Notes: generated from the sequence alone by a model not told the origin. DNA of 64,000 nt from an uncultured Acidobacteriota bacterium (GCA_963796275.1 CAWCKY010000001.1:32001-96000); one strand, 5' to 3'; shown: positions 21,757 through 53,996, counted from the first letter of the stretch. Made by a program: numbers and translations.

Positions 21757-21784
21757 GAGTCCGATAACACATCTTATGTAACCA
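21757..21784 (+). other. XerCD dif-like site 1
   Basis: GAGTCCGATAA-CACATC-TTATGTAACCA (11-6-11). Confidence 0.75.
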
Positions 21785-22208
21785 GAGTAAAAAGATTAGA
21801 CGGTTACTATAAGGCAGATTAGCTCTTGCCGTAATTGATATATCCTTCATGGCCGACCGACCCATGACATCGTTTGGTGATCCATAGACCACCATGGACA
21901 AACAATAATTCTGAAAGAACCCCATTAAACCAATCACTTATTATTGGAGTCAGTATCTACAAACGAGCCTCAGCGTTGTTGCCAGGAGGGCTTTATGCAA
22001 AGACATAAGCTCAATCTGATATTGCTATCCTTGCTGCTTCGCTGGGTGTTTGATATCACAATTTATGTTATGCAACAAAAACAGTTCACAGACTCGGCAT
22101 TGAGATTTCTGTTGGCTCAGCCTGCATAACAACCGAATCCAGGCATTAATGAGGTTGGTGGCTGTATAAGACCAAGATTTCCATGCGACGTATTCTGCAA
22201 TCAGAAGA

Positions 22209-23021
22209 GTTAGCCGCAGTTGGAGGTGACTCGTGAACGATTATCAGATCAAGACGGTTGAATCGCGGCGTTTTGATATCACCGGTGCGGTATCTCCTAT
22301 TGAAGTAGAGTTCCACAAGGAACCGCGGTGGGCGGTTGAGCTTGGTGACATCGGCATCGTGTCGCGTGAGTCTCTGGTCGATGGGCTTGCCTTGGCGCGG
22401 TATTCGTCCCGGACTGCATTGACAGGTTCCGCTTTGCCCGCAATGACAATCATGCAACCTCCCGGAGAACCCGCTCCGCTTGCTCCATCAGATTTGCTCG
22501 ATCTCAGCTTGCTTGTTGCATCATTCGGACGAATGCCGACGGAAATGGACTACTCGGATGGTAGCCGATACCTCGCTCTGAGAGCGGCCATCGAAGCGCG
22601 ACTGGGGCTTCAGCACATCCATCTCGGAATACGTGGCGGCGAAAGACAAATCGAACTGGAGACCGCCGTCGAGCAGGTCGCTATGAGGTTAGCAGAGCAT
22701 TCGCTAGCATTCTCGCAGTCGCCTGATCTCGGCTTTCTGAAGTTCGTTGATCTCATCAAGAAGGGCGGACGAGTCTTCACGTTCTCCGCAGGCGCTGACA
22801 CTTTGCTTGGAGCAAGTGCTCTCGCGAGTGCCTACCAACTAGCGATGTTGTCGAATCCAGTAGTTGCCATCCAGTTGGCGGCAGGCGGAGCAGCTGCGTA
22901 CGTGGTTCTAAAGTTCGGTAGAGCAGTTGGGAAGAAGATCGACCATCTCATCCAGAAGTGGTGAGCTGGCTAACAACAGCATGCAGCGGACGGCACTCCG
23001 TGCCGCCGCTGATGCTGAGCG
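22209..23021 (+). mobile_element. Integron gene cassette
   Basis: Starts with core site GTTAGCC, the exact complement of the attC inverse core GGCTAAC; a single ORF fills the cassette. Confidence 0.85.
22233..22964 (+). CDS. Cassette-encoded hypothetical protein with C-terminal hydrophobic helices
   Basis: GGAGG RBS, GTG start, stop 3 nt before the attC. Confidence 0.75.
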   Translation: MNDYQIKTVESRRFDITGAVSPIEVEFHKEPRWAVELGDIGIVSRESLVDGLALARYSSRTALTGSALPAMTIMQPPGEPAPLAPSDLLDLSLLVASFGRMPTEMDYSDGSRYLALRAAIEARLGLQHIHLGIRGGERQIELETAVEQVAMRLAEHSLAFSQSPDLGFLKFVDLIKKGGRVFTFSAGADTLLGASALASAYQLAMLSNPVVAIQLAAGGAAAYVVLKFGRAVGKKIDHLIQKW

Positions 23022-23027
23022 TTATGC
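22968..23027 (+). other. attC recombination site (60 bp)
   Basis: GGCTAAC-AA-CAGCAT(G)CAGCGG(A)CGGCAC-TCC-GTGCCG-CCGCTG-ATGCTG-AGC-GTTATGC, with extrahelical bases. Confidence 0.9.
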
Positions 23028-23187
23028 GGCGCTTTCAAATTTGGTGCCACAGCAGGTTCTTCGGTAGAAAGCGCGTCCGCGCGGAGGCCGGCAGCCGTGG
23101 TTGGAGGTAATATCCGCTTCTGCACTCTTTTCACCCTGGAGGTCGTGTGACAGCTTGGCGGTCCAAACGCGTTGCTCGCACCGTCAA

Positions 23188-23298
23188 CAGGGAACTTCAG
23201 GAGTTCGTGATCTCCCAATCCGATAAAGCCTATCGGCCGATCCTGCGCCACCTTTATTTTCTGTGGGGACCTACGCCAAGGATATGTTGGCTGAAGAG
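23188..23298 (+). pseudogene. Second degenerate fragment of the SprT-like gene
   Basis: Nucleotide similarity to 27495-27608. Confidence 0.8.
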
Positions 23299-23329
23299 CT
23301 TCGCTCCGCTACGGCCCTTCGGATGAATG

Positions 23330-23694
23330 CGTGGAAGGTGAACCCTGCCAAGAGTAAAACCGAGAACCCCGATATGTTTACTCCATTTTCCACACACTAG
23401 AATTGTGTGCAATTGGGTTGGCGTGTCAGGGGTGTTTTATGAAGTTCAATGCGCCCCTCAGCCATGCCTATTAGGGCAAGGGGTAAAGGACGGATGGTGA
23501 CTTTGATTTGACTCGTTGCCCTGCCGGTTTTGTCATTTGTCGCCATCCGGTTTCTGAGAACCCCCCTTTCTGATTCACGCACCAAAAGGATATTTCATTT
23601 ACAAAATCCCCCCTCAAGCGGCTCCGACGAACACAGGGTATTCAAGACAAACAATCCTTCAATACCAAAAGGTTGGCACTATATTTAACCGTTG
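23330..23694 (+). repeat. ~370-bp structured non-coding repeat, copy 2
   Basis: Colinear with 4097-4466. Confidence 0.85.
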
Positions 23695-23863
23695 TAATCG
23701 AAGAGGGTCTGGAGAAGGGGTTAGCGGCAGGCAGTACGTACGTACGTGATAGGTTGCATCTTCTCAGCCCGATTCATAAAGAGGGAAGACCTATGAAACG
23801 ATCTATTGAGGAGGCAATAGTATCCCCTGAAAATCAGGAAGGGCGCTTGCTCAGGTGCGCGTG

Positions 23864-24178
23864 CTAAAGCGCGGAGCGCATCAACGACACATCTTCACTT
23901 TTCCTGATACATTGAATTTCCAGGTCAAGTAATTCAAGTAGTCTTCTGATTCGCTGCATCTTGCTCTCATCCACTTCAAGCGCTCCGATCGTAGACGCGT
24001 AATCAAGTAGAGCTTGGAGCTGTGCCCGATAATCTTCCGCGGCAGAAATGCATCTATCGGTTATCTCTTTCAGCTTCGGGCTCTGATGGTGAAGAGCGGC
24101 AAAATATTCCCCCATTAAAGCGTAGTACTTCCCAGCTGTGTGATAAATCGCTCGCTGCATCTCGATCAGGTTACTCAA
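23864..24178 (-). CDS. Hypothetical helical protein
   Basis: 104-aa ORF with a GAGG RBS and an amphipathic pattern. Confidence 0.5.
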   Translation of the reverse strand: MSNLIEMQRAIYHTAGKYYALMGEYFAALHHQSPKLKEITDRCISAAEDYRAQLQALLDYASTIGALEVDESKMQRIRRLLELLDLEIQCIRKSEDVSLMRSAL

Positions 24179-24628
24179 TTTTTTGCCTCACGTTTAAGGG
24201 GTGATGACATTCCAGCAACTCCACCCAATGCGCATCCTAGCGTGATGGCTGGAACGAGTGCTGTCTATCGTCCTTCTTTTTCATTTATCTCCCTGCCTCC
24301 GAAAGGCTACGAAAGTAGTTGGCACGAGCTCCTTCAACTCGGCCAGGACCTGATCGCACGCCGTGAGCTCGGCCACGAGTCGGGAGTCCCGGGTGCGTCT
24401 CTCCTTGTCCGAAGAATATAGTGATTCGAATCTGAAATGAGTATAGGGCGCTTTCGCGCCCTAAATTCAGCAGCGTCCTCAGCCATTAGGGTATACACTG
24501 CTAATTAGCCCGAGTTTATATCGCAGAGCCATGCTCTTGTCAACATATGAAACTATTCCAATAGATACTACATTTGGTGGAATCGCGTAAGGTGAATGTA
24601 TCGCCGTCGTCGGCAATGGCGACCACGG

Positions 24629-25699
24629 GATCCTTGCCGGCCAGGGAACAATCGCCGCCGGCGCACCAACAATCTGACCTCGATCTAACGTCGAGTGATG
24701 TCTCTTCCGGAAAACCCGTTGATGGTAAACAGTTCGCGGCACAATCTGACACCACGGAGTATAGCTTATATGTGTGCTTCCGCACAGATAGAATTCGGAG
24801 GCGGACGCCCGTGGCTATTGGCAATCCGGGCCGTGTCGGTGGCCGGCCTAAGTGAGATGCTGAGTAATCTCCTTACTAGGGGGAGGAGCTAGTCGCGTCA
24901 GTAGCAGCGCAATCTCGCCGAGCGGCAGGCAGTAATCCACATCTACGTTTTGCAGCACGCTGTACGGCATGGAGGAGGCAATCGCTTCCACCGGATCCTG
25001 CACGATGGCTATTCCCCCGCGATCCTTCACAGCTTGGAGCCCCGCCGTGCCGTCATATAGATACCCCGTTAGAACCACGCCCACGATGCGCGATCCATAA
25101 GCGTGAGCCGCCGAGCGGAATAATACGTTGATGGCTGGGCGGAAGCGGTTCTCCTTCGGGCCGCGCGTGACCCTGACAAGGCCGGGCTCAAGCAGTAGGT
25201 GGTAATCAGGCGGAGCCACATAAATATGCCCCGGCCTGAGCAGATCAAAATCTGCCGGAACAGAGGCTGGGAGCGGCCCAGCATCCATAAGTATCCGGGG
25301 CAATATGCACGGAGCAGTCGGACCGCAGTGTTGCACAAGGAGAACAGAAGCGGGAAACCCTGCGGGCAATCCGCTAACAATCACCCTCAACGCATCAATG
25401 CCTCCGTAAGAGGCTCCTATGACGATAATGTCCTTGTTCGCCATACGTACCACCTCTATCGAATAGGATTAAGATCACGAAACTCGATGGCGCAAGAATG
25501 ACAAAGTTGTATGGTCTAGTATATTGAAATTCTTGTTTGGCAACGAGCCCCCCAAATTCCCCACTGGTGTCCACCAGGCCCGTAGCCGGAGTGGGTTGGT
25601 GGAAACGGCCTAACTACTCATTTCACCAATAAATTAGATACCAGAGACGGTTCCAGAGCTAATCCGTCATATGTGCCTACGACGTCTTTATCGGGTGCA
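24629..25699. repeat. ~1.07-kb near-identical direct duplication (copy 1; copy 2 at 33133-34204)
   Basis: Sequences match almost base for base. Confidence 0.95.
24848..25453 (-). CDS. cheB: Stand-alone CheB-type methylesterase domain protein, copy 1
   Basis: IIVIGASYGG, VQH, YVAPPDYHL, FRPAINVLFRSAA, LTG..DGTAGL, SMP. Confidence 0.9.
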   Translation of the reverse strand: MVRMANKDIIVIGASYGGIDALRVIVSGLPAGFPASVLLVQHCGPTAPCILPRILMDAGPLPASVPADFDLLRPGHIYVAPPDYHLLLEPGLVRVTRGPKENRFRPAINVLFRSAAHAYGSRIVGVVLTGYLYDGTAGLQAVKDRGGIAIVQDPVEAIASSMPYSVLQNVDVDYCLPLGEIALLLTRLAPPPSKEITQHLT

Positions 25700-25793
25700 C
25701 CTCTATTTGGATAGGATCATGAAACTCGATGGCGCAAGAATGACAAAATGGCTTGGCGTATGAAATTTCTTGTTTGGCAACGAGCCTCCAGCC

Positions 25794-25999
25794 ATTGAAG
25801 CGAGTAGAGCCGCCTTTCCTCTTATTTGCATTGTGCTTCGCGTCGTCAGGCCGTCAACTCGCTACGCTGCGCTCCGCGACTCCTTCGCTTCACTACGGCC
25901 TTGACGGGTGACTGCCTTCCTCCGCTCCGCTAAATCGGCAAACTAAGAGGAAAAGGCTATCACCCGAGTTCTACTCGAACTACGTTACGCAAGCACAAT
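25794..25999. repeat. Hairpin-forming intergenic element, copy 2
   Basis: GCCTTTCCTCTTATTTGC...GCAAACTAAGAGGAAAAGGC with CGCTACGCT/CTCCGCT motifs. Confidence 0.75.
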
Positions 26000-26299
26000 A
26001 CGCTGGCGAATCGTCAAGTGCGACGGCGGATCCGCCTTGATTCGGAAACCAATAATCAAAGGCGGATTGCCCCTGATTCTGCGAAGAGCGAATCAAAAAG
26101 TGAAAAACTTCCAGCCGGCAATCCGGAGTCGGATCAACCCAGAAACCCAGAACTTGCGAAGCCCGCTATTTGAGTACCTGCAAAGGAACAACGCCTCACA
26201 GCGCCTGTGCTAGCGCAAGAGCGATAGTCCACAGAGCGAGATCGGAGTCTCTGAGAGACGATGCTCGAGCATCGCCGGCCGCGGCGTGGAGCCCACAGG

Positions 26300-26668
26300 T
26301 CAATTCAGCGGTAAAGTTCGCGAGACGACATCTATAAGCTCATCCACGAAATTCACCCCTTTCTTGATAAGTCCCTGAGCGCCTGCTGTCTTAATTTCCT
26401 GCATCGTGATTGAATAAGTGGAGGTACAGAAGATGATGGGAGTATCAGGGTCGAACGTGCGGATCAGAAGGCATAATTCAAGCCCGGTGCCGTCTGGCAA
26501 ATGATAGTCGAGTAGATAAAAGTCGAATCTTCCACTCGTGGCCCGGGTAAGAGCATCAGCTTTACTGTAAGCCCCAACCACCTCGTAATCCTTCAGAAGG
26601 CCAGCTATCATCCGACACAAATCTTCGTGGTCCTCGACACACAAGATTTTCTTTTTCGATTCAGCCAT
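26300..26668 (-). CDS. Single-domain response regulator
   Basis: ILCVEDH, LLDYHLPDGTGLELC, PIIFCT. Confidence 0.9.
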   Translation of the reverse strand: MAESKKKILCVEDHEDLCRMIAGLLKDYEVVGAYSKADALTRATSGRFDFYLLDYHLPDGTGLELCLLIRTFDPDTPIIFCTSTYSITMQEIKTAGAQGLIKKGVNFVDELIDVVSRTLPLN

Positions 26669-26715
26669 AAGTTTCCGCCGTGGCGAACTCATTCAGGCTG
26701 GTTGTGGAGCCAGGG

Positions 26716-27064
26716 CAATTTAGCGGTAAAGTTCGCGAGACGACGCTCCTAAGTTCATCCACGAAATCTTGATAAGTGCTTGAGTGTCTACTGCCTTAGT
26801 TTCCTTCATCGTGATTGAATAAGTGCACGTACAAAAGAAAGGGTGTATTAAGGTCGAACGTACGCCGTCAAAAGACAGAGTTCAAGCCCGGTGCCGTCTG
26901 GCAAATGATAGTCGAGTAAATAAAGGTCAAAGCTTCCACTCATGGCCTTCGTAAGAGCATCAATATTAGTGTAAGCCCCAACCACCTCATACTCCTCGAG
27001 AATTTATTGACCAACCGATATCTTGTTCCCCCACACACAGGATTTTCTTTGTCGATTCAGGCAT
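26716..27064 (-). pseudogene. Decayed tandem paralog of the response regulator
   Basis: Colinear nucleotide similarity to 26300-26668, with deletions. Confidence 0.85.
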
Positions 27065-27460
27065 AAGTTGTGGAGCGGTGCTGCAACGCTATTCTCGTGA
27101 AAGACAAAACCCTACTTGCAAAATAGAGTCCAAAGCAAACAGGGATATCCCCGTAATAGATGGGGAAATCCCGGTAACCGTGTGCTTTATAACAAGACAG
27201 TGGGTATTTATCTCATCTGTACCGCTGCAATTATTGGCTGAATCGCTATCGACCAGGCGGATATCGACAATACACAGGTATATGAGAAGCTGGTCAGAGC
27301 TACGCGAGACAGGCAAGCCAGAGGACTCTTTCGCAGACTCCCGCAGCTCTAGGCCATTCCTTGCCCTCTCATACAATCTCGTCAGCGCCATCCCTTGACA
27401 AATGGAGTAACATGTCTCTCGTATAAGAGACATGTACCAAGCTTTCGGAAAGGGTGCGCG

Positions 27461-28291
27461 ATGAAATCACGTATTACGGCCGCGGACATAAAGCACAGGG
27501 AGGAATTCCAAGAGTTCGTTGTCTCCCAATCTGATAAGGCCTATCGGCCAGTCCTGCGCCGCCTCTATTTTCTTTGGGAGACGTACGCCAAGGACCTGTT
27601 GGCTGAAGCATCGATGACTCCGCCCTACATAATGCTCGCATCCCCATCCCTCCCGCAGCATTTCGGAGATTACTCTTTGGTGAGCGGCTTCGGCGGACAT
27701 TCGCAGATCCGTCTCCGTCCGACACTCCTGACAGGGCACCACAATGCGATGAAGAAAGGCGACCGCTACGCTGAAGGGAGGTTCCTTTTCGTGTGCGACG
27801 TTCTCCTGCACGAAACGATCCACCAGTACCACCACGAGATCACTGGAAAGACGGAAGACTCTTACAAGGGACACGGCCCGCAGTTTCGGGACACGTGCAA
27901 CCTCGTGGGAAAAACGCTGGGGCTCGGTCATGTGCGCGTTGCCAAGGCGCGGGGCAAAGACAAGGACCTTCCCTCCTGCGCGCTATGGCCACACTGCGTC
28001 AGGCCTAGGAACTACTACCACGGCGCTTACGTGCCGCAGGCCACCAAGAAGGGAGCGAAGGAATTTGACGATAAGATCAGCGCAAAACGGGCGGCGCTTC
28101 GCAAATTTCTGGGGAATGACCGCTCCGGAGCCTTGATCACGTTAATCGAGGCCGCGCATAACTTTCGTCGCCTCTGCCCGGAGGGTTTCGAAGAAGAAGC
28201 CGCCGCGCTCTTGCAGGGTATCGATCGAAGGGAGAAGAGACGGTTGATCGGGTTTCTTCGAGCCGCACGTGAAATGGACATAGACCTCTAA
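27461..28291 (+). CDS. SprT-like zinc metalloprotease (HExxH)
   Basis: VLLHETIHQ...GHGPQFR motif; preceded by the palindrome ACATGTCTCT-N6-AGAGACATGT. Confidence 0.75.
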   Translation: MKSRITAADIKHREEFQEFVVSQSDKAYRPVLRRLYFLWETYAKDLLAEASMTPPYIMLASPSLPQHFGDYSLVSGFGGHSQIRLRPTLLTGHHNAMKKGDRYAEGRFLFVCDVLLHETIHQYHHEITGKTEDSYKGHGPQFRDTCNLVGKTLGLGHVRVAKARGKDKDLPSCALWPHCVRPRNYYHGAYVPQATKKGAKEFDDKISAKRAALRKFLGNDRSGALITLIEAAHNFRRLCPEGFEEEAAALLQGIDRREKRRLIGFLRAAREMDIDL

Positions 28292-28327
28292 TAGGGCGAC
28301 TGGGGACCGGGAGAATTTTGAGAAACC

Positions 28328-28372
28328 TTGCAAAGCTGAGCTTTGCAACATTTGGACGGTTTATGTTAGCAT
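28328..28372 (+). promoter_or_regulatory. Sigma70 promoter with a palindromic operator upstream of the NYN gene
   Basis: -35 TTGCAA, 18-nt spacer, extended -10 TGtTAGCAT; perfect inverted repeat TTGCAAAGCT-G-AGCTTTGCAA over the -35. Confidence 0.6.
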
Positions 28373-28472
28373 CCTGCCAAGAAATCCGAACGCCGGTAGG
28401 CCGGCACAACAATCGCCCTCTTCTGCGATTTTATCCAGCGGAAGAGGGCATTGATCTATATGGGGCACCTTA

Positions 28473-29093: not shown

Positions 29094-29309
29094 TGGAAGC
29101 CTGCCTGTACAACGCAAAAAATTAGTTAATTAAAAATACAATCGTGCCCGATCTGCATGAATGAAAAAGCGGATTTTGCTGGACCACAAGAACCCGGGTC
29201 GCGGCGAACGATGGTTCGAATCGCTGGCATCGATTGCCCGGATGCTTGATCCGAATGCGCCGGCGGATAACCAGGCGGCGATACTCGGCATTGAATGGCA
29301 CCAGCTGGC

Positions 29310-29460
29310 GCCGACCCCTTTGAGCGTGCCTGCGTAGTAGGTAATCTTGCGCGGAGAGATAGCCTGGATGTTCCGTCTCGATCTCGCCGTGATCTTCATT
29401 CTGCCGCTTGGCGCGTTCGAGCGCCGGCGCCTCGGTCAGAATGAGGTTTCTCCCGCCGAC
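29310..29460 (-). pseudogene. IS481-family transposase internal fragment
   Basis: HGEIETEHPGYL.AQD and YYAGTLKGVG across a frameshift. Confidence 0.75.
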
Positions 29461-29470
29461 TTGGCCTCTT

Positions 29471-29974: not shown

Positions 29975-29988
29975 ATTGTGTCAGGCGC

Positions 29989-33318: not shown

Positions 33319-33957
33319 CTATTGGCAATCCGGGCCGTGTCGGTGGCCGGCCTGAGTGAGATGCTGAGTAATCTCCTTACTAGGGGGAGGAGCTAGTCGC
33401 GTCAGTAGCAGCGCAATCTCGCCGAGCGGCAGGCAGTAATCCACATCTACGTTTTGCAGCACGCTGTACGGCATGGAGGAGGCAATCGCTTCCACCGGAT
33501 CCTGCACGATGGCTATTCCCCCGCGATCCTTCACAGCTTGGAGCCCCGCCGTGCCATCATATAGATACCCCGTTAGAACCACGCCCACGATGCGCGATCC
33601 ATAAGCGTGAGCCGCCGAGCGGAATAATACGTTGATGGCTGGGCGGAAGCGGTTCTCCTTCGGGCCGCGCGTGACCCTGACAAGGCCGGGCTCAAGCAGT
33701 AGGTGGTAATCAGGCGGAGCCACATAAATATGCCCCGGCCTGAGCAGATCAAAATCTGCCGGAACAGAGGCTGGGAGCAGCTCAGCATCCATAAGTATCT
33801 GGCGCAATATGCACGGAGCAGTCGGACCGCAGTGTTGCACAAGGAGAACAGAAGCGGGAAACCCTGCGGGCAATCCGCTAACAATCACCCTCAACGCATC
33901 AATGCCTCCGTAAGAGGCTCCTATGACGATAATGTCCTTGTTCGCCATACGTACCAC
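33319..33957 (-). CDS. cheB: CheB-type methylesterase domain protein, copy 2
   Basis: Near-identical to 24848-25453; the TAG of copy 1 is CAG here, giving 11 extra aa. Confidence 0.9.
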   Translation of the reverse strand: MVRMANKDIIVIGASYGGIDALRVIVSGLPAGFPASVLLVQHCGPTAPCILRQILMDAELLPASVPADFDLLRPGHIYVAPPDYHLLLEPGLVRVTRGPKENRFRPAINVLFRSAAHAYGSRIVGVVLTGYLYDGTAGLQAVKDRGGIAIVQDPVEAIASSMPYSVLQNVDVDYCLPLGEIALLLTRLAPPPSKEITQHLTQAGHRHGPDCQ

Positions 33958-34766: not shown

Positions 34767-36023
34767 TCAGGAGGAATCCATCAGGAACGCCACGAACGTC
34801 TCCGCAGTGGCGTTGTCAGCCGAAGCTTGTATGGTTTCAATGATCATCATGCGGCCCTGCTGGCAAACCGGACAGCGGACTGATTCCGACATGACCGCCT
34901 GCTCATGATACGTCTGCCAGGTTCCCGGGCTGTCGGTCGAGAGGCCGCCATCTTGTTGTTCAATCAGTCGGCGGCACAACTCCAGATTCTCCTGCCGGGA
35001 GCGATGAGCCAGAAGGCCATAATAGCGGATTCTGACCAACCCTTTCGGGAGGATGTGGAGTAGAAAACGGCGCGTGAATTCACGAACATCAAGCGTCATC
35101 GTTTTGGTCGCGTTTCCGGCCGCATAGTCCTTGTAGCTGAATGTCACCCGGCCATCCGAGAGTTCCAGCAAACGATAATTAGAGATCGCCACCCGATGTG
35201 TGTAGCGCGCCAGATATTTTAAGACCTGTTCCGGTCCGCCGAAAGGCGGCTTCGCATAGACCACCCATTCCATCCCGCTCAATTCACGGAGCAGCTTTTC
35301 GAGACGACCTTTCTGCGTCAAATGGCTCAATTGCCCGGCACAGACCAGATTCCCATTCTGAAACTCTTGTCTGAGGCCAGCAATGAACTTGCGGCGAAAG
35401 AGCCGGCTCAGCACTTTCACCGGGAGAAAGAATCCTCGGCGACAAGCGATCCACCGGGAGTGATCCGGAGAGAGCCCGCCACCCGGCACAACGCAATGCA
35501 GATGCGGGTGGTGCTGCAAAGTCTGGCCCCAGGTATGGAGGACAGCGAGAAAACCAATTTCGGCGCCGAGATGACGCGGGTCCGCGGCGATCTCCAACAG
35601 CGTCTCGGAAGTGGCCTTGAAAAGTAGTCCGTAGAGTATTCGTTTGTTCTGCAGCGCTAACGTAGAGAGTTGCTCCGGCAGCGTGAATACAACATGGTAA
35701 TACTCACACAACAGAAGCTCCGCGGCACGTTCATCGAGCCAGGCGGCGCGCGCCGTAGCCTGACATTTTGGACAATGACGGTTCCTGCAGGAGTTGTATG
35801 CGATCTGATGATGGCCGCACTGGTCGCATTGCTCCAGATGCCCACCCAATGCAGCGGTGCGACATTGCATAATGTCGCGCAAGACCCGGCGCTGCACCGA
35901 AAAAAGGGGCAGCTCGTCGCGTTCCATTTGATCAAGGTCTATGCTCCTGAAGATGTCAGCCAGCTCCAGTCGCGGCTTATTCACAATCCCGGCTGGCAGC
36001 CTGCTGACTGAGCAGGTGGTCAA
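34767..36023 (-). CDS. IS91-family (HUH/Y2) transposase
   Basis: Zn finger CRTAALGG..CDQC..SCRNRHCPKC, HTWGQ..HPHLH (HUH), YLARYTHR (Y2). Confidence 0.95.
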   Translation of the reverse strand: MTTCSVSRLPAGIVNKPRLELADIFRSIDLDQMERDELPLFSVQRRVLRDIMQCRTAALGGHLEQCDQCGHHQIAYNSCRNRHCPKCQATARAAWLDERAAELLLCEYYHVVFTLPEQLSTLALQNKRILYGLLFKATSETLLEIAADPRHLGAEIGFLAVLHTWGQTLQHHPHLHCVVPGGGLSPDHSRWIACRRGFFLPVKVLSRLFRRKFIAGLRQEFQNGNLVCAGQLSHLTQKGRLEKLLRELSGMEWVVYAKPPFGGPEQVLKYLARYTHRVAISNYRLLELSDGRVTFSYKDYAAGNATKTMTLDVREFTRRFLLHILPKGLVRIRYYGLLAHRSRQENLELCRRLIEQQDGGLSTDSPGTWQTYHEQAVMSESVRCPVCQQGRMMIIETIQASADNATAETFVAFLMDSS

Positions 36024-36840
36024 GTGGACTGGCGGTGGAGCTCAACGCCAGTGTAGAGACGTGTACGTAAAGGGCGGTCGTCTTCAGACTGCGATGGCCA
36101 AGCAGCAATTGAATGGTGCGCAGGTCGGTACCGGTCTCCAGCAAATGAGTTGCAAACGAATGACGAAGCACATGTGGCGTGACGGTCTTTGTCAGGCGGG
36201 CTGTTTCACCGGCCTGCCGACAGATGCGATAAATGGTCGTGGTATTAATTGGGCGGTTTGGATCCTCTCCAGGAAAGAGCCACTGAGCCGGCCGGTACGC
36301 CTGCCAGAATTGGCGCAGCAAATCCAGCAGATGTGGCGAGAGCATGACCAAACGATCTTTGCGCCCCTTGCCATGACGAACAACGATGAGTCGCCGCTGG
36401 CTATCGATGTCTGTATTGCGCAAGGCTGCCACCTCCGAGACGCGCAACCCCGCGGCATAAGTGGTAGTGAGAATGGCACGGTGTTTAAGGTTATTGGTGG
36501 CTTGTAGAAGCGCTGTCACTTCGGCCTGGCTCAAGACGAGGGGGAGCCGTTTCTCGTGCCTGGGATAAGGAATCTGATCGATCATCTCCTGTCTGCCGAG
36601 AGTCACGTTATAAAAGAAGCGAAGAGCGCAGACGGTCTGGTTGAACAAGGCCCACGAAGCCTTCTTTTGCCGAACCAGATGGAGTTGGTATTCGCGGACG
36701 TGAGCCGGGCCAAGCTGATCTGGGGACCGCCTAAAGTGTTTGGCGAAATCGGCCACGCAACGAAGATAGACCCTGATCGTATTGGGCGAGTAATTCCGCA
36801 GCTCTAAATCAGCGGCCATCCTTTGACGCAAATCGGTCAT
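35977..36840 (-). CDS. Tyrosine recombinase/integrase
   Basis: YAAGLRVSE, GKGRKDR, HVLRHSFATHL, LLGH..TTALY. Confidence 0.95.
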   Translation of the reverse strand: MTDLRQRMAADLELRNYSPNTIRVYLRCVADFAKHFRRSPDQLGPAHVREYQLHLVRQKKASWALFNQTVCALRFFYNVTLGRQEMIDQIPYPRHEKRLPLVLSQAEVTALLQATNNLKHRAILTTTYAAGLRVSEVAALRNTDIDSQRRLIVVRHGKGRKDRLVMLSPHLLDLLRQFWQAYRPAQWLFPGEDPNRPINTTTIYRICRQAGETARLTKTVTPHVLRHSFATHLLETGTDLRTIQLLLGHRSLKTTALYVHVSTLALSSTASPLDHLLSQQAASRDCE

Positions 36841-38569: not shown

Positions 38570-38914
38570 CGTACAGAATACGAAATTCAGTATTACCGGT
38601 CAAGCGACCCCAGTTCCCCGCCGTAACCTGGATCGGTCGAACAACCGACCAAACGGCCCGTGCAACCGCATTGAAGCTGCCGACCTTTAGCCAAGAGCAT
38701 AGCGGCGATGCGACCAGGTCAACGGCGCTCTCGTCGCCAATTGTGGGTTCCGGGAGAAATTGATTTTTGTTGCTAAAATGGCGTTACTACTCGATAACTA
38801 AATATATTTAATGTTGACAGATTCCCATTAAATCAATCACTAATTAATAAGTCGTTGACTCAAAAAGCCGGAAGCGATTCCTCGGCCCTGACTCAAAGGC
38901 AGATCGAGGCATAG

Positions 38915-41815: not shown

Positions 41816-41825
41816 TTCATCATCT

Positions 41826-45944: not shown

Positions 45945-45963
45945 TTCAACCGGCGTTAAAAAT

Positions 45964-47317
45964 TTAGCGGCGCATCGCCGATAGACTTTCTAGCAGGCGG
46001 CGAGAAATCCTTGAATTCGGATTGAGTTCATACAGCATGCGGAATTCCCGCTCAGCATCATCGAGCAGCCCGGACTTCGTATAAATCAGCGCCATCGTCA
46101 GATGCGAGGCGGCGTGATCGCGCCGCGCTTGAACTACTTCATTCGCCAGGGTCTCATCGAGAATACGGAATTTTGCCAGCGGCGCGGGCGGACGCGGAGA
46201 GCTGAATTCTTCTCCGCCTCTGATGGCTGTTACTTGCCAGGAATAGATTGCGCCACGTTTGAGGGATTGTGGCGTCGTCCACGAAGTATCTTTGAGCTGC
46301 GAACTGGTGGTTACCTGACTGAGCTTATCGTCGTAAACTTCAACGACGTAGCCTGTCGCGCCATCCAACGGCGACCAGCGGAATGTCGGGCGATCAGAGA
46401 AAATAACTATTCCAATCGGGTTGATCACTGAAAACTTGTTTCCCTGGTTGTCGCCACCTCTCATCAATAAATCATCAGGGCGGACCAACCCTGCCAGAAG
46501 CTGTGGTTTTTCGAGCAACTGAGAGCTGAGCGCATTCCTGATCATTTGCTGGTAAGCAGGAGGCAGGTGATCGACACCCGACAGCTTACCGTTTCCATCC
46601 AACGCCATCTGTCCGGCGCCGTCATTGAGCTGAGCGATGACCGCAGAGCCTCCTTGCGTCGGATTGGGCGAAACAACCGGTGTGGTTGGCGAGGGAGTCG
46701 TTTGCCCAATCTTCGGGTCCTTCCCGAAGTGTAGTGTAGTGTCCCAAATCATCAAGCCAACGGCAATCATTAAGAGCGCCGCCAGAGCGGACCCGGCGAC
46801 CAGCGCTGGAGACCTCGATAAAATAAATTGCGGACCTGCCAGGGAAGATTCGACCGGCGCGGGAGACCTCGGTATAGGAGATTGCGCAGCCGCGACAGAT
46901 CGGCGCAAAGGGGGTTCCTTCTACATGAGGCGGATGATATTCGCGATCCAGCCCGGGCATAACCCGGTTTCTGAAAGCGCGCAAGTCATCCACCGCCATC
47001 GCGCACTGCTCGCAACCGGTTAAATGATCCTTGACGAGCTGGAGTTCCTCTCCCGACAGAGCTTCATCAACATATGCAGCCGTCAGCTCAAAAGTCAGAT
47101 GCACATGCTCCGAGGACGAAGAAACCGTCTCCGCCGAAGCGCTAAACACTTCTGATTTCAGCGCATAAAACACCCCATCATCACCCAACACCCGTTCGAC
47201 CTTTAGGCGACATGCTTCGCAATCTCGCAAGTGTCTGGATGCGGACAGGAATTCTGCGGCCGAAACCGTTTGACGACCGTAGTCTTCAATCTGGGTTTTA
47301 GTAAGATGTTCAGACAA
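45964..47317 (-). pseudogene. Anti-sigma-like protein (two HxxxCxxC zf-HC2 motifs, TM, extracellular Ig/Fn3-like region), frameshifted near 46920
   Basis: HLRDCEAC and HLTGCEQC in 46622-47317; TM and PTFRW..YSWQV in 45964-46908. Confidence 0.8.
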
Positions 47318-47432
47318 GTCTCTTCACCCCACCATTAAGGAGCAGCGCCAGGGATAATGTTGTCCTTATAATAGCGTAAGTTATTCATAATAGTGTAAGT
47401 TACTCAAACTCGTCGAATATAGGCGTGGCATA

Positions 47433-48518
47433 TCAAAGAAACCCTTTTAACCGCCGTTCCAATCGTCTACGCGCCGATTGGCGCGCACTGATGACCTGTT
47501 GCCGCGTCTGTTGCAACAGTTCGGCGATCTTCGAGTCGTCAAGAGGCAATTCGCTCCACAACTCAGCCAGTTGTTCCTCGCTCATCTCCAGCGCCTCGGC
47601 CAATTGGTCAATAGACGCTATTCCTGTCGCCGGAAACAGCGCGATGCAACCCCGGTTTTTCTGGTCTCTCAGATTAAGCAGAAACGCCACACGCTGGTGT
47701 AGAGGAAGCAGTCGCAATTCCTCCCAGAGCCGTTGCAGGAAGATGCGTTGTTCCAAGCGCGAGGAGACATCGGCTTCCTGGCCCGCCAACTCAACCCTGG
47801 TGTCAGCTGAATCCTCATCAATTGACTCAATCCTCCTGTCCGAGATTTGCAACAACTCTGCTACAGTCTTTACCAATTCATCAAACTCAACCGGACCGCC
47901 AGCGTGATTGAAGATTGTCGCTAGCGCCTCCTTGAGGTCGGCTGAATCTTCGCCACCTCCGAGCGAATTGATAAGCTGTTCATTTTTAAGCAGTTGCTTG
48001 AGATCGGCCGCCTTGATAGAAGGCCTTTGTCCCTTCCAAGCCGCATACCCGGCGACCAGTTTCTTCGCTTCATCCTTATCTTCGTGCCAGAGCGCAAAAC
48101 CCGCCTGACGAGTCAGCAGGTATTCAATCTGATTTCTGAGCGCGTGTAGCCGAGGAAATTGACGGCGCATCCATCGAGCGCAGAGACGGTAAGTAATTGT
48201 GGCCGTAAGCCCGCGCACATCTCTGATAGGATGCGTCTCGATATCAGAGCGGAGTTTTTGTAATTCGACCAGCAGTTGCGCGATCGCTTCCAGCCGCAGG
48301 TCTTCTGCTTCCGCCTCCACACCGCCTCGGTTGAGATTGTGGCGCAGCTTATATCGAATAATCCCATTGATGACTGGCTCAGCGTATACGGTAATGAGTT
48401 GTGATAGAAACACGTCTATTTCTTCGCCACCACTCATCAGAACCAGTGGTTCGAGCAACCTGTCAATTTGTGGCGATGATTCATTCATTACAGACACACA
48501 ATATGAAAAAAAGAACAA
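47433..48518 (-). CDS. Atypical long ECF-like sigma factor
   Basis: AEDLRLEAI region 2 and IAELLQQTRQQVISARQSAR region 4; lies upstream of the anti-sigma gene. Confidence 0.75.
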   Translation of the reverse strand: MFFFSYCVSVMNESSPQIDRLLEPLVLMSGGEEIDVFLSQLITVYAEPVINGIIRYKLRHNLNRGGVEAEAEDLRLEAIAQLLVELQKLRSDIETHPIRDVRGLTATITYRLCARWMRRQFPRLHALRNQIEYLLTRQAGFALWHEDKDEAKKLVAGYAAWKGQRPSIKAADLKQLLKNEQLINSLGGGEDSADLKEALATIFNHAGGPVEFDELVKTVAELLQISDRRIESIDEDSADTRVELAGQEADVSSRLEQRIFLQRLWEELRLLPLHQRVAFLLNLRDQKNRGCIALFPATGIASIDQLAEALEMSEEQLAELWSELPLDDSKIAELLQQTRQQVISARQSARRRLERRLKGFL

Positions 48519-49202
48519 TGCAGAGCCGCCGCGATGATAAGCCCTGACTCGATAACACGAAAGTCTTGCAGCGTGTGATTTGATTTGATCACGTCAGATT
48601 TTGTGGTTCCAGCGGAAACTCTAAGGAAAGCGGCCTTCGAGACTTACAAGTTGGGCGCTGAGTCGTGCGCTGAAGCGAGCTTGGATGTCGACTCGAGAAC
48701 GCCGCCCCATGTCTTGCACCGAGCAGGGCCGCTTTCAGTCACCCCCTATCCACATCAAGCCGCCGCGCATCTATTTCATTAGCCGTGTCGGAGAACATCT
48801 TGTTAGTAATCTGATTAAGAGAACGGCGAAACGCACCAACGCGCTTGCCCTTGGGGAGCGATATGTACAGATCAGCTAACTTGTGGTCACCATGGAAGAA
48901 TTCCTTTTTCGAGTCCGCCGTGCGCGCATGTTGATGTCAATCAACACTCTCGACAAAAGCTTGAGTTCGGCCATCAGGGCAGCCGTCTTATACGCCCCGC
49001 TCAAAGCGGGTGGTGTCACATCGTCCTTTCATACCACGATTGAATTCTTCTATTGTCAGCATCCGTTTTTACCTCGTGTCGTAGAATATCGGAGGTTGTG
49101 GCTTTCTGAGGGGGGAGATTTCCAAGAATTTTCCCGATAAGTCACACGCCCCTATTTGTGAGGTGTCCTAGAATGAATGGGTGAGAAAGGCATGGAGGAG
49201 AG

Positions 49203-50873
49203 ATGGTCACTGTGGAGGTCATCCGAGACGAGGTAATCCAGGAAATCTTCGGCCTCGCATTCTTCACCCACCGAGACAGAGAGGTGGCGATAGAGGTCGT
49301 CGTTGATACACTTGTGCGAATCCCACTCGTTCGTGACATCCAGGATGAACGCCCAAAGGCAAAGATAATGCAGCCCTATAAGCTGAGAATACCCGAGGAT
49401 TTGCTTCCGCGGTTTTGCCTCTATTTGGCTTCAGACCTTTGGGAACGAGACCAGGAGAAAGCGGAGCCGAACAAAAAGCCTGTCTACCGACCGGATGATG
49501 CAGATTACTTGATCCGCTATATCAAATTCCTCGTTTGGCAAACGATGGACCGGCATTCTCGTTATGTTGCGGTGGCGCTCGGCTGCCTTCTTCACAACTA
49601 CGGGCCAACCCAAATCAGCGAGCTATCCCCGGCATTCTTCAATGGCAACAATATCCGAAATACAAAGAAATGGCTCACTGACCGTATCCGCGCTCGGTTT
49701 AATGGGATGAACATTGTCAATCCGGACAATGCACAGATAATCAATCGCCTGCCTATTGATGGTGAACGTATTCTTGTGCAGCAGTCGTTGGAATTGTTCA
49801 GCGACAATAACCATATTCAACCTCAGACTTTTATTTTGGACACGGTATTTGCAGAGGGATCATCACATACTGAGAGAGAACGAATCCATGTCGTGGCTTG
49901 CCCAGTTTGTGGCGGTTTGTCTAAATTGATTCGGGAATGGAACGATCTTTTTGAGACAACAAGCTGCTGCAGGTTGGCTGATCCCGAAACGAAGCTGCGT
50001 GTTCCTACCTTTACAGATGCGCCGACTGACCCAACAGACCGCTTGTATCCGCACCCTCTCAGCGACCTTGAATTATCCGGGATCAGGTTGAAGCTCTATA
50101 AAGAATTATTTCGCAGAAAATTAGCTCGCCCAAGCCGTCTCCGCTTGTGCGTGGACGGGGAAGAGTATTTGGAGTGGCAGCTAGACGCCTGGTCTGCTGG
50201 CCAGTCATGTACTATTCCCTCAACTGCTACTTATATCGAAATATTCGGGGATGATGCGCAGGGAGATGCCCTGCTGGCCGTATTTCCTTTATCGGGCTCA
50301 GATACAACAGAAGATGAAGCCTCCCATTGGTCTGTGACAACGGAGTGCGGGCTGAAGATTGAACTGATGATCTCGACAGTTGACGGCGGAAAGAGTGAAC
50401 AAATTGAAGCATCAATTCAGGTGGGAATCGTTCGAGTTGCGCTCTCTCTTCCCGACGTGCTCGTCGATTTTCGGCTGATACAGCATCGCACTATCGACGA
50501 TTTTAACGTCTACGAGAGAGGCTTCTACGAGCGGTTGCTGTATATGATGTTTTGTTGCACGGAGGTCCATGGATCAAAGGACGAAAGTGCGGAGCGCCAT
50601 TTAATTGAACAATCGATTACTGATATTCAGATAGCTATACTTTCGTACATAGATGAGTTGATCGATGGTCTTACGGATTCCATTAACCAGGTCGACTCAC
50701 CAGGCATAGAGGTTTTGACTTTTCCTGGGAGACCGCCGCCCAAGGTAGAAGGGCACTGGCCCCGCGTCACGATGGGCGCGGAGTTTGGTGAACGGGAGTG
50801 GTCGGTGCCCGATCTTGTTCTCCCAGGTGAGGGTGCAGGTGACAACAATCCCGCTGGAGCGCCATCGGCTTAG
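49203..50873 (+). CDS. Hypothetical 556-aa protein, N-terminus possibly sigma-derived
   Basis: GGAGG RBS; long ORF; HVVACPVC motif; followed by a hairpin at 50900-50928. Confidence 0.7.
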   Translation: MVTVEVIRDEVIQEIFGLAFFTHRDREVAIEVVVDTLVRIPLVRDIQDERPKAKIMQPYKLRIPEDLLPRFCLYLASDLWERDQEKAEPNKKPVYRPDDADYLIRYIKFLVWQTMDRHSRYVAVALGCLLHNYGPTQISELSPAFFNGNNIRNTKKWLTDRIRARFNGMNIVNPDNAQIINRLPIDGERILVQQSLELFSDNNHIQPQTFILDTVFAEGSSHTERERIHVVACPVCGGLSKLIREWNDLFETTSCCRLADPETKLRVPTFTDAPTDPTDRLYPHPLSDLELSGIRLKLYKELFRRKLARPSRLRLCVDGEEYLEWQLDAWSAGQSCTIPSTATYIEIFGDDAQGDALLAVFPLSGSDTTEDEASHWSVTTECGLKIELMISTVDGGKSEQIEASIQVGIVRVALSLPDVLVDFRLIQHRTIDDFNVYERGFYERLLYMMFCCTEVHGSKDESAERHLIEQSITDIQIAILSYIDELIDGLTDSINQVDSPGIEVLTFPGRPPPKVEGHWPRVTMGAEFGEREWSVPDLVLPGEGAGDNNPAGAPSA

Positions 50874-51088
50874 CAGGATTTCCTCAGCCAAGGGTATTGA
50901 GCGGTAGAGAGATCATCTCTCTACCGCTTGTTTGGAGTTACTGTAGCTCAAGAGTCTCGTCATTCATTCCCGGCACGAGAAGCGCCGATCTTTGGCCCCA
51001 AACTTTGTCTCATCGTTTTTTGACGCTATTATAGATAGTGACACAGCTGTCTAGGCTAGATAACTTTACTCTATCAAGTACTTTGTGT

Positions 51089-51116
51089 GGGTCTGATAAT
51101 AGGCCTTATGTAACCA
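51089..51116 (+). other. XerCD dif-like site 2
   Basis: GGGTCTGATAA-TAGGCC-TTATGTAACCA. Confidence 0.75.
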
Positions 51117-51240
51117 TTGTATTATAATTAGATAGTTACAAGAGTATTGGATTGCCTTTGACGGACGCTGCTTGAGCATCATCAGCGGTATATAGGAGAT
51201 GGAGGCGGGTTTGTTCAAGGGGCTCTTTAATGGCCTCTTT

Positions 51241-51615
51241 CTAGCCCTCTTCTACACGATTCTTGCCAATATCTTTTGCTTTTCGCGCTGCCCCATCAGC
51301 AATTGTGTTCAAATCGCGCGATCGAGGGTTCGGTGGCGAGGTGGTTACTCCGATACTCGCCGTGACTTTTGGAAGCAACTGACCATTGTATTCAATCGAA
51401 ATCGACCTGACCCGCTCACACATATCCTCGGCAATCTCACGTGCCCTCAGTTGTCCCTGCCCAACAATTATTGACACGGTTTCATCTCCGCGTCCCCTAT
51501 AGGCACTGCCCAACATTTCCAATGCGTCGCGGGCGGCGACCAAATAGGCTCTCATAACCTCATCTCCAGCATCATGCCCAAAATCCTCGTTGATCTTCTT
51601 GAAGTCATCCATCTC
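51241..51615 (-). pseudogene. GGDEF domain fragment (degenerate RGDET)
   Basis: MDDFKKINEDFGHDAGDEV, VTASIGV, AKDIGKNRV. Confidence 0.8.
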
Positions 51616-52632
51616 TCCACCGGTCAAGGACCATTCCTCGCACGCTTCGACTTGCCATGCAAATCGCAAGAGAGCGTCCCGTATAAGAGCCAAATTGGAG
51701 CAAATCCTTAGGGGGAACTTGGATAAGGAGCAGACTCATCAATAAGATTTGATGGGCGCGCTGAAAATGTTGCCTGAAAAGGATCGTGAGTTCATGGCTA
51801 ATTATGTGGCCAACCAGGAGATGCGCGTGAGTATGGCAAATCGTAAGAGAGCGTCCCCGTATAAGAGCTAAATTACAGACAATTCTTTCTGAGATGGAAT
51901 CAGCTTCGGGAACACAGTGATCTTTGTTTTGCCCCACGATCTCCTTAGATCGCATCATAGTGCCATCAAGTAAGCCAGCGTCACAAAAGCAGGATTGGTA
52001 GTCAGAACTAGATGACAGGTGTCGAACTTTGATGGCACTCTTCTCTATTTAGCGCCCATACTGAACCCTCATAAATTTATTAGCTACAACGATCTTGGAT
52101 GTGGAATGAATGTTGCACTACCAATTGCGGCTGGTAGAAATCTTCAGTTTACATGAAGCCGCAGGTTTGGACGGGTAATTTGTTTAGCTTAGCCATTCAT
52201 CAGTCGTCCAATGATTCACGGATCATCATGGTGCTTCGGCGTCAACTCAGCCGGATCGTGCCCATGCAAAGAAAACCTCGTGGAACAGTACAGCATTTCA
52301 GACAAATCGCTGCGTGCCCGGCTTCTCCAGTAAAGCGGGGACCGTAATGCCTTTGAGTAGGTGAGCGGCGATGACTGCTCCCGTGAAGCACGGAGGCGGT
52401 CGCTTCCGAAGTGTTCTTGAAGTGTAAAAGCCGAGTGGCAAGCGTAACGATCGTCGCACTTGGGAGGAGTTATATGCGCAATTAATTGGTGAGAGCAAAA
52501 ATGGAACAGGCAAACCACCTGTGCAGAAGAGACATTCTTCGCAGAGTCGAACGTCTCGGCTGGTATTTCTCCAATGGTCCGGAATAAAAGACCAGTGGAA
52601 TCGTTTTCTGAATTTGAAAGGAGCAAACAGGT

Positions 52633-53523
52633 ATGAAAAATTTCGCTAATCGATCTCAATTATGTAGGAGAACTCTCAGGAAGGGAATCGGGATTATGTT
52701 CTTCCTAATGGCAGTTGCGTTGGTTCCAACCAGCGCGGCTTACGCTCAGTGTTCGATAACATTCGGTCGCGGCGGCGCATCGACAACCTTTACCGGGAGC
52801 ACTACGAACGCAGGAGGCCCCTGGGACTTCATCCGATCAACGAGTGGGATGTGTACGTTCGAGGTATTTAACCAGACAAACTTTCAAGGTCAGTGGAGGC
52901 TTTACGGTACGGGAATAAATGAACGTATTCGAATAGGTGCGGACGGCGCACAGGATAGTAACGGCTGGCGCGCGCGATCAGTACGCATCACCCAAAGGAA
53001 TGAGTCGTCCTGCCAAATCGCTCTTGGCGACGCCGGCATTACCCAGACCTTTTTCGGACCAGTAGATCTATCCGGCATCTCCGGTTGGGCATTTATCCGA
53101 TCAACAAACGGCCGCTGCGTCTTTCAGGTCTATAACGGGAATAATCTCTCAGAGCCCAGTGTTACTTATGGAAGTAATATTAACGCGAGGATTCGGGCCG
53201 GGGCCACAGGCGGGCAGGACAACGGTGGCTGGCGCATTCGATCATTAAGCATTCGAAATGCTAGTGCAGGTACATGCTCCATCACTCTCGGTGATAATGA
53301 CAAATCACAGACCTTCTTTGGCCCTGACCGTGTCTCCAACATATCGGATTGGAGCTTTATTCGGGCATCTACCGGAGGATGCCGCGTCATAGTCTTTGAC
53401 GGGAAAAACTTCGATGGCAGGCAAGCTCCATACGAGCAGGCGATAGGCCCTCAGATTCGAGTGGGATTCAGGATAGGCTCTCTCATTATCCAACCCACAC
53501 GTATCCAACCACCTCTTAACTGA
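52633..53523 (+). CDS. Secreted protein with three beta/gamma-crystallin-like repeats
   Basis: Signal peptide ending AYA-Q; three repeats C.I..G..TF.G..W.FIRS...C...VF...NF.G..RI.S. Confidence 0.75.
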   Translation: MKNFANRSQLCRRTLRKGIGIMFFLMAVALVPTSAAYAQCSITFGRGGASTTFTGSTTNAGGPWDFIRSTSGMCTFEVFNQTNFQGQWRLYGTGINERIRIGADGAQDSNGWRARSVRITQRNESSCQIALGDAGITQTFFGPVDLSGISGWAFIRSTNGRCVFQVYNGNNLSEPSVTYGSNINARIRAGATGGQDNGGWRIRSLSIRNASAGTCSITLGDNDKSQTFFGPDRVSNISDWSFIRASTGGCRVIVFDGKNFDGRQAPYEQAIGPQIRVGFRIGSLIIQPTRIQPPLN

Positions 53524-53927
53524 TGACTATAAACTAGGGTTAACAATTATATAACAATATAGGTCGCCCCTCTGATGTGGAACATTGAGATTTTAAATCC
53601 AATCCTTTCCAATTGGAGAAGGCGACCTCGCGATGCCGAGCGCAGTTAACATATCTACTGATCGCAGGCGAGGATCAGGAAGCGGATGCGTCTTACTTCA
53701 CAGGCCGGATCCCTGCATTTATTCGCACGAGTATCTGAAAGGCTAGGTCTCGCTGTGATCTGGGGCAATCCCGACATCGTACATCACACTTGAAAAACTT
53801 CGAAAGCCCCTCATTGATATAGTCCGACCTCTTTCCACATCGTTTTCAATCTGCGCATCCCAAGGGGGCATCCTTTCCGAGTATATGTATGTGTATGGGT
53901 GAGATATATGACTTTAATATATCTAGA

Positions 53928-53955
53928 GCGTCTAATAATGTATCTTATGTAACTG
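53928..53955 (+). other. XerCD dif-like site 3
   Basis: GCGTCTAATAA-TGTATC-TTATGTAACTG. Confidence 0.75.
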
Positions 53956-53996
53956 GTGTATTGAACTTAGATAGTCTCTATGCCTACGAATCATTG

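Follow-up and report, generated by a model that had tools for sequence, protein, structure and literature searches.

A 64,000-nt stretch of DNA from an uncultured Acidobacteriota bacterium (GCA_963796275.1 CAWCKY010000001.1:32001-96000; hereafter, the window) carries three sites that mimic the Xer recombination site dif and continue into a flanking element, making up units of ~65-130 bp (hereafter, extended sites). The window corresponds to C1:32001-96000 of the source genome (G000), a 9.46-Mb assembly of seven contigs with ~54% G+C, which holds four further extended sites on contig C7. Based on their anatomy, their mimicry of dif, the separate location of the genome's own dif, their rare and patchy distribution, their unrelated cargo, and the presence of one copy in a provirus, we propose that these sites constitute a small family of Xer recombination sites that are extended, portable, and placed at the borders of accessory modules, a reading to which we assign a probability of roughly 55%. 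The data suggest that mobile DNA may use such sites to borrow the cell's own Xer recombinases.

The three 28-bp cores lie on the + strand at 21757-21784 (site 1, GAGTCCGATAA-cacatc-TTATGTAACC), 51089-51116 (site 2, GGGTCTGATAA-taggcc-TTATGTAACC), and 53928-53955 (site 3, GCGTCTAATAA-tgtatc-TTATGTAACT), with scores of 52.9, 55.4, and 47.2 bits, respectively, under our second site model (R2, built from 12 sites). An earlier note on this DNA had described three co-oriented sites with three different spacers, each followed by a box that begins 22 bp from where the XerD-like arm starts, and the sequence reads as claimed (box TTAGACGGT at 21796-21804 in site 1; TTAGATAGT at 51128-51136 in site 2 and at 53967-53975 in site 3). 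The box falls within an inverted repeat overlapping the outer XerD arm, GTAACC-N18-GGTTAC at 21778-21807 (+) in site 1 and GTAACC-N18-AGTTAC at 51110-51139 (+) in site 2; in the right element of site 3 (53949-53978, +), the GTTAC half is degenerate (AGTCTC). The upstream sequence A(G/A)GTA(T/C)TTTGT(A/G)T that the note had assigned to sites 1 and 2 was also found, as AGGTATTTTGTAT (21744-21756, +, directly abutting the XerC-like arm) and AAGTACTTTGTGT, and a core-less copy of the flank upstream of site 2 is present at 12990-13013, differing at 2 of 24 nt. The whole element of site 2 spans 51029-51180 (+), including a left box of ~60 nt and ~40 nt past the inverted repeat; both parts are common to the site at C7:445016 (70% identity over 132 bp) and partly to that at C7:101803. 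Compared to an expectation of 0.01, the core pattern with at most 2 mismatches matched the window three times, and none of 100 shuffled sequences reached three matches, which confirms that the observation is real and non-random.

In the complete 9.46-Mb assembly, a profile search (nhmmer) recovered seven extended sites with E <= 3e-12, followed by the next match at 2e-4. These are the three window sites and those at C7:101803, 426082, 445016, and 447395, all on the + strand of their contigs; the C7 sites have flanks in common with those of the window. Degenerate relatives occur at C4:81744 (with a duplicated stretch of the XerD arm), C6:~1756750 (with a left box and a 7-bp spacer), and C6:~2302740.

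To analyze the core, we ran a looser pattern (<=1 mismatch) on the source genome and 40 relatives, and it was present in 23 of these 41 genomes, including the source genome. Relatives contain 0-2 copies, most of them 0-1 (two only in G012, G026, and G027), compared to seven in G000. The sites of the relatives have G(C/A)GTC(C/T)GATAA-N6-TTATGTA in common and flanks that are unrelated to each other. The 28-bp core is the dif of this clade. The XerC arm, 6-bp spacer, and XerD arm of the window cores all fit this dif consensus. A possible resemblance between the XerC-like arm and half of a resolvase res site was set aside, given that this core is, in relatives, the only site and is linked to the terminus.

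A core-only copy in the source genome (C7:919401-919426, GCGTCCGATAA-tacata-TTATGTAGC) is free of any flank element and lies 14 kb from the cumulative G-C maximum of C7 (933,643); dnaA is located at the skew minimum of contig C3. Two genomes of the same genus (G001 and G002) have dif flanks whose counterparts in G000 are found at C7:878.2-879.6 kb and C7:934.1-936.5 kb and therefore bracket this copy, placing it inside the syntenic dif interval. Judged from position and sequence, C7:919401-919426 is evidently the true dif of G000. Accordingly, the skew switch is held by this copy and not by the window sites, which lie on C1 in a window that is not at a skew maximum and thus do not qualify as the single site of a terminus; they are surplus, ectopic copies. 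The interval C7:879600-934100 is ~54.5 kb longer in G000 than in G001 and G002, and no dif remnant was recognisable at the two borders of the interval. Also within this enlarged interval are a degenerate site in inverted orientation whose XerC arm is intact (C7:911734) and, on both sides of the dif, genes for TonB-type receptors, one of them split over two frames (919438-923414).

To determine the distribution of extended sites, a covariance-type sequence model was built from the seven sites of G000, and it revealed five in G052, a 10.4-Mb genome from another genus of the same family. With model R2, full-length matches among 87 family genomes (the order comprises the same 87; the set takes in G004, flagged unpublished and without a match) were confined to G000 (7) and G052 (5). 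Besides their extended sites, both genomes have one core-only match each, which in G052 lies 7 kb from xerD, and the other 25 family genomes with a match at E <= 1e-3 were core-only. Extended sites were present in 2 of 151 genomes of a class sample and in 1 of 151 genomes of a phylum sample, namely G000. The species-representative genome collection yielded no exact match to the core plus the G000 right box or to the G000 left box plus the core, a result that says little since both patterns used boxes specific to G000 and would miss sites of the G052 type. In exact-pattern scans of viral contigs, the XerC arm was absent from 3 of 4 and from 48 of 49 of the matches listed; a single match in a metagenome scan was judged to be due to chance (AT-rich coding sequence without a XerC arm).

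Outside these two bacterial genomes, a complete extended site was found in a provirus record of IMG/VR (G338; a tailed phage, 67.5 kb, CheckV 71% complete). It reads GCGTCCGATAA-tagacg-TTATGTAACC-N18-GGTTACA and is positioned between an early-gene block and a helix-turn-helix/HNH-endonuclease gene pair that heads the packaging and head genes. In G052, one site (site b) is likewise found among phage-like early genes, with an integrase gene 8 kb away. We found no shared DNA or neighbour protein among the contexts in G000, G052, and the provirus except for a common family of TonB receptors; the gene content of G000 includes many TonB-type receptors (CarboxypepD_reg/OMP_b-brl_4) and MacB-like permeases, a set reminiscent of Acidobacteriota. 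The travelling unit is the site and not any particular gene, and a conserved neighbour protein that could serve as accessory factor was sought without success in all three neighbourhoods.

The provirus, which has its own integrase, together with site b of G052 and the degenerate sites on C4 and C6 of G000, would also fit a different origin, in which the sites are relics of cer/psi-like multimer-resolution sites from plasmids, phage-plasmids, or phages that integrated by other means. Such sites would be inert chromosomal scars through which no module moves, with Xer only resolving dimers of the free replicons. The accessory DNA of cer and psi is ~180 bp long, lies on the XerC side, and is bound by PepA with ArgR or ArcA. 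The conserved element here differs in that it is a ~30-bp repeat of the XerD arm and lies on the XerD side, in sites that are chromosomal or proviral; the XerC-side left box is confined to G000. According to excerpts of PMC9226527, cer/psi sites do resemble the extended sites in combining a dif-like core with conserved flanking accessory DNA, which in cer binds accessory proteins and sets the efficiency and direction of recombination. Intact co-oriented pairs 1.4-2.8 kb apart around one to three genes are unexpected for whole integrated replicons, and Pfam searches of the scanned open reading frames (ORFs) near the sites found no replication, partition, or transfer genes, a weak argument given that many of these ORFs have no family. 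Overall, we regard an origin as inert relics as rather unlikely.

A comparison of 13 extended sites (seven in G000, five in G052, and one in the provirus) shows what is conserved beyond the core. The general anatomy consists of a XerC arm G(N)GTCYGATAA, a 6-bp spacer, a XerD arm TTATGTAAC(C/T), an AT-rich stretch of 18-19 bp, and (G/A)GTTAC(A). The sites of G052 read GCGTCYGATAA-N6-TTATGTAAC(C/T)-N18-GGTTAC(A), so that the element common to the two genera is the inverted repeat TGTAAC(C/T)-N18-(G/A)GTTAC(A), the left half of which is the outer XerD arm. The accessory box proposed in the earlier note therefore holds as a conserved element beyond the 28-bp core, with the qualification that across genera it is the GTTAC half that is conserved and not the TTAGA part; the box TTAGAYRGT is the G000 version, made of the end of the loop and the first bases of the right half of the repeat. 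GTTAC occurs at the aligned position in 11 of the 13 sites (G000: 5/7; G052: 5/5; provirus: 1/1), the exceptions being site 3 (53928) and C7:445016. Among 29 core-only dif sites, it was found in none at that position, and neither was TTATGTAAC (0/29, the latter by eye).

In G000, the repeat GTAAC(C/T)-N18-(G/A)GTTAC occurs eight times at 18-bp spacing and three times at 19 bp, compared to 0-1 times at most other spacings. Four of the eight copies are in extended sites, one is inside a gene, and three are intergenic. These four places without a dif core include a tandem (C6:823743 and C6:823790, 47 bp apart) in intergenic DNA upstream of a MacB-like permease gene. They raise the alternative that extended sites are not recombinational at all and are instead operators bound at the inverted repeat, or XerD landing pads for chromosome organisation, next to incidental accessory genes. 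In 9 of 13 cases, the neighbouring gene on the side of the XerC arm points away from the site, which is not significant; gene orientation is otherwise inconsistent, with sites 2 and 3 at the 3' ends of genes, and a promoter role was dropped for the same reason. Moreover, an operator does not need a two-arm mimic of dif with a 6-bp spacer, the distribution over 2 of 87 family genomes and a provirus is that of mobile DNA, and four core-less matches are close to the ~2 that chance would give. We thus consider a purely regulatory or structural role very improbable. The C6 tandem itself (823743-823819) overlaps TTGACA-like hexamers and may be the operator of a regulator that could also bind extended sites; a regulator gene beside it was sought and the idea dropped, as no plausible ORF was found.

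Reading the sites as substrates of Xer, we compared their spacers, arms, and orientations. All extra sites differ from the dif of their own genome in the spacer and the outermost bases of the XerD arm, and their arms match those of the host dif over the inner 7-11 positions. Two pairs among the 13 sites have identical spacers, taggcc in site 2 and C7:447395 and tggcga in two G052 sites, compared to ~0.02 expected by chance (78 pairs of random 6-mers). The two tggcga sites have the first part of the loop in common and differ in XerC arm and left flank. Within clusters, the three sites on C1 are co-oriented, as are the four on C7 and the two on G052:C79. Two G052 sites (L054:3975-3995 and L056:8400-8420) carry an additional, solitary XerC-like arm, GAGTCYGATAA, in direct orientation ~11 nt after GGTTAC, and the two share homology over ~45 nt of the right flank. 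We considered and rejected a small conserved ORF that would end in the right box (right of site 2, C7:101803, and C7:445016): its stops are read through or missing across copies, implying that this stretch is conserved as DNA and not as protein.

The left box has a history of its own. It extends to ~60 nt in some copies and corresponds to the 5' region of two families of genes resembling extracytoplasmic function (ECF) sigma factors. The core-less left box of the window (CTTTACCCTATCAAGTACTATGTG, 12990-13013, +) lies upstream of an ECF sigma gene (11769-12497, -), and this segment is duplicated whole at C3:1154934-1155720 (left-box twin at C3:1155667-1155720; the sigma gene copies are 95% identical). 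Another ECF-sigma-like gene is located on the XerC-arm side of site 1 (20242-20988, -), and paralogues or fragments of it are placed and oriented alike next to site 1, C7:445016, and C6:~1756750. Based on this correspondence, the left box reflects shared cargo or ancestry within G000 and is not a general part of the site. Thus, the upstream sequence that the earlier note had seen at sites 1 and 2 is present and lineage-specific: it is confined to G000, belongs to ECF-sigma-like 5' regions, and is absent in G052.

All sites are intergenic, and, as the idea of a mosaic region in the earlier note anticipated, they lie in accessory DNA with cargo that is unrelated between sites. Left of site 1 (13636-19964, -), an RHS-repeat protein (14598-19964) and a TPR protein (13636-14601) are encoded downstream of a sigma-like gene. 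The 29.3-kb segment between sites 1 and 2 (21785-51088) is a mosaic of patchy GC content (0.46-0.58) with two CheB-only genes, a response regulator, SprT-like, NYN, OsmC, OmpA, and Crp genes, an IS91 element with a tyrosine recombinase, a Tdi1 immunity protein, DUF3800, and an M43-like peptidase, along with many ORFs that match no family. The 2.8-kb segment between sites 2 and 3 (51117-53927) holds a truncated GGDEF gene (51241-51693, -) and two family-less ORFs (52216-52659, -, and 52633-53523, +), and an IS66 Orf2 (TnpB)-like gene to the right of site 3 (54053-54669, +) is split by a frameshift over two overlapping frames. On C7, a complete-looking cluster for a non-ribosomal peptide synthetase (NRPS) is bordered on both sides by extended sites (C7:426082-445016, 18.9 kb; MbtH, a dioxygenase-like gene, an aminotransferase, a three-module NRPS of 3407 aa, Ldh_2, and a TonB-C protein), followed by a 2.4-kb segment with an endonuclease/exonuclease/phosphatase-family gene (C7:445016-447395). 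An RHS gene of 2189 aa lies beside C7:101803. In G052, two co-oriented sites 1.4 kb apart enclose an ArsR + AHSA1 operon.

The pair formed by the IS91-family Y2 (HUH) transposase (34767-36023) and the overlapping upstream XerC/D-like tyrosine recombinase (35977-36840; pair 34767-36840, -) includes the sole recombinase gene between the window sites. This XerA/integron-integrase-like protein (NF040815, 225.5 bits vs a cut-off of 220) could be the dedicated recombinase of the extended sites, or a sporadic integrase could take that role, in which case the likeness to dif would reflect common recombinase ancestry. A 78%-identical integrase is indeed present in both G000 (C3:77820-78926) and G052:C30; it also occurs in G094 (79% identity), which has no extended site, and it is encoded on contigs without sites. 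The IS91-recombinase pair is single-copy in G000, the best G052 relative of its recombinase is 33% identical, and no dif-like site was found at the ends of the pair. Recombinase genes are absent near most sites (those on C7 are >400 kb from any PF00589 match), and the match of the arms to the host dif over the inner positions likewise points to the host enzymes. A dedicated recombinase is therefore an improbable explanation.

Several other features of the window and of C7 were recorded alongside the sites. A DUF4236 protein, not an IS66 transposase, follows the gene at 54053-54669. A TnpB-like protein (Cas12f1-like TNB domain, 515 aa; 703-2818, -) adjoins a serine resolvase as an IS607-type pair. 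The CheB-only genes (24848-25453 and 33319-33957, -) encode proteins of 201 and 212 aa without a receiver domain, one adjoining a response regulator and the other a Crp-family regulator. A stretch of ~60-75 bp at 24446-24520 is 79-100% identical to many contigs of G001, G002, G052, and two further genomes of the family (G003 and G019), and it matches neither a tRNA nor an Rfam family; the window as a whole contains no tRNA and no known RNA family. A ~150-bp repeat at C7:424743-424896 has >40 copies on all large contigs (75-94% identity), also matches G001 and G002, and matches itself on both strands, as expected for a palindrome resembling miniature inverted-repeat transposable elements or repetitive extragenic palindromes. 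A suspected relic site at ~38.6 kb of the window was rejected because it belongs to a separate ~95-bp repeat without a dif-like core (38744-38840 vs C7:101966-102059, right of the C7:101803 site; 82% identity).

A number of observations weigh against portable Xer sites that border modules. The sites are not at the dif locus, unlike those of classical Xer-exploiting elements, and the sites of G052 have neither the G000 left box nor the TTAGA part of the right box. The provirus integrase gene is 5.6 kb from the site, so that Xer was not needed for integration of the provirus. In the sole cross-genome comparison of a cassette, the ArsR + AHSA1 operon is 89% identical in G067 (same genus as G052), where it has other flanks and no sites, and the homology ends short of the two sites, 276 and 152 bp inside them. 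The genomes of G001 and G002 are fragmented and show only scattered gene-sized matches to the site regions; the matches of G003 and G019 were likewise scattered and gene-sized. Neither recombination products nor empty sites or circular forms were seen, and the sole public run, from a soil metagenome, consists of low-share contigs of ~200 bp (0.09 of sampled words), none of which bridges a site, so that it is no evidence on habitat or excision; an odd joint in this run, from 48015 to 53018 (depth 2), is at no site. As a hairpin, the inverted repeat is weak (-0.5 to -9.1 kcal/mol; z from -3.25 to +1.52, with z < -2 in 2 of 10 sites), and its paired bases never co-vary. The idea of a stable single-strand hairpin was dropped for its weak folding, and a protein-binding site in duplex DNA is the simpler reading.

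The recombinases of the host enter the same balance. xerC was identified at C1:842856-843869 (TIGR02224, 345 bits, above cut-off) and a xerD candidate at C7:854806-855759. The latter has a +1 frameshift ~25 codons before the catalytic-tyrosine motif (...LGHSDISTTQIYTHV), which is intact in the other frame. If real, this frameshift would leave XerC catalysis only. Its position is not a homopolymer; an assembly error is plausible given the other split genes in this assembly.

Much is known about Xer-exploiting elements in Vibrio, Neisseria, enterobacterial plasmids, and Acinetobacter. Searching the literature on integrative mobile elements that exploit Xer (IMEXs), Xer, and dif in Acidobacteria, we found none described for such large-genome soil bacteria. 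Similar to IMEXs (CTX, TLC, and RS1 of Vibrio cholerae and the gonococcal genetic island), the extended sites are dif mimics on mobile DNA with co-oriented flanking copies and altered outermost XerD-arm bases, and most units are without a recombinase of their own, the 29-kb window segment with its IS91-linked gene being different in this respect. Known IMEXs are located at the chromosomal dif, whereas the G000 arrays lie on C1 or, at C7:101-447 kb, 470-820 kb from dif. Furthermore, no phage or XafT-like gene is recognisable in the G000 modules, and their sites add an inverted partner of the XerD arm, of which the portions of the Xer-site literature searched give no description. In excerpts of PMC9226527, IMEX arrays are said to arise by successive integrations, and base changes in the outermost XerD arm of the gonococcal island site to stop FtsK-driven excision. 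With integron attC sites, the extended sites have in common that they are short, portable, imperfect palindromes in co-oriented arrays with promoter-poor, unrelated cassettes. They differ in having a two-arm dif mimic as core, neither an attI platform nor an above-cut-off integron-integrase match was found beside the arrays, and the hairpins are weak.

The modules of Acinetobacter are bordered by sites in alternating (C/D, D/C) orientation, whereas the cluster sites of G000 and G052 are all co-oriented. Both systems have many Xer-type sites beyond the main dif that border small, varied accessory modules; the present one belongs to another phylum and has no plasmid context, no resistance cargo, and an inverted repeat on the XerD side. 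According to excerpts of PMC12907356, dif-module islands also exist in Acinetobacter chromosomes, and their extra sites were judged unlikely to serve dimer resolution. Excerpts of PMC11705084 describe Acinetobacter plasmid sites whose compatibility is set by the site sequence and which form cointegrates that do not excise, again a difference from the excision proposed here. Taken together, this system is set apart from IMEXs by its location away from dif, from Acinetobacter modules by co-orientation, a chromosomal location, and another phylum, and from cer/psi by the XerD-side repeat. The interpretation first put forward for the window, Xer-type sites marking accessory modules, is partly supported: it was right in kind and needed correction in detail, and its mechanism, with serial integration and an accessory factor, is putative.

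Under the proposed mechanism, host XerC and XerD would bind the core, and the altered outer XerD arm with its inverted partner would bind a second XerD or a dimeric host factor. This second binding would replace or block the control that FtsK and the terminus exert on dif, or it would set the direction of the reaction. A circular DNA with one site could then integrate at a resident site and excise again, events that co-orientation within clusters would permit, and in this way arrays of accessory modules may be built. Differences between spacers would restrict crossing-over, both among non-cognate sites and with the true dif. Taken further, a site of ~60 bp would recruit host XerC/D plus an extra XerD or dimeric factor for gene capture without an integrase, which would be independent of FtsK, ectopic, open to any cargo, and able to pass between genera and via phages. 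We hold this broader version only tentatively, as a possibility on the doubtful side.

If integrase-less gene capture is the correct reading, these sites would be a functional analogue of the integron without its own recombinase, with cargo as different as single operons, an NRPS cluster, and RHS toxin loci. If the sites are active, gene capture by way of the host machinery for dimer resolution would be more general than assumed, Xer capture would work at chromosomal positions far from dif, and it would move cargo as large as a non-ribosomal peptide synthetase cluster. How ectopic Xer sites may escape FtsK control can be approached concretely through the XerD-side inverted repeat, and the signature core + N18 + GTTAC provides a way to find such modules in metagenomes.

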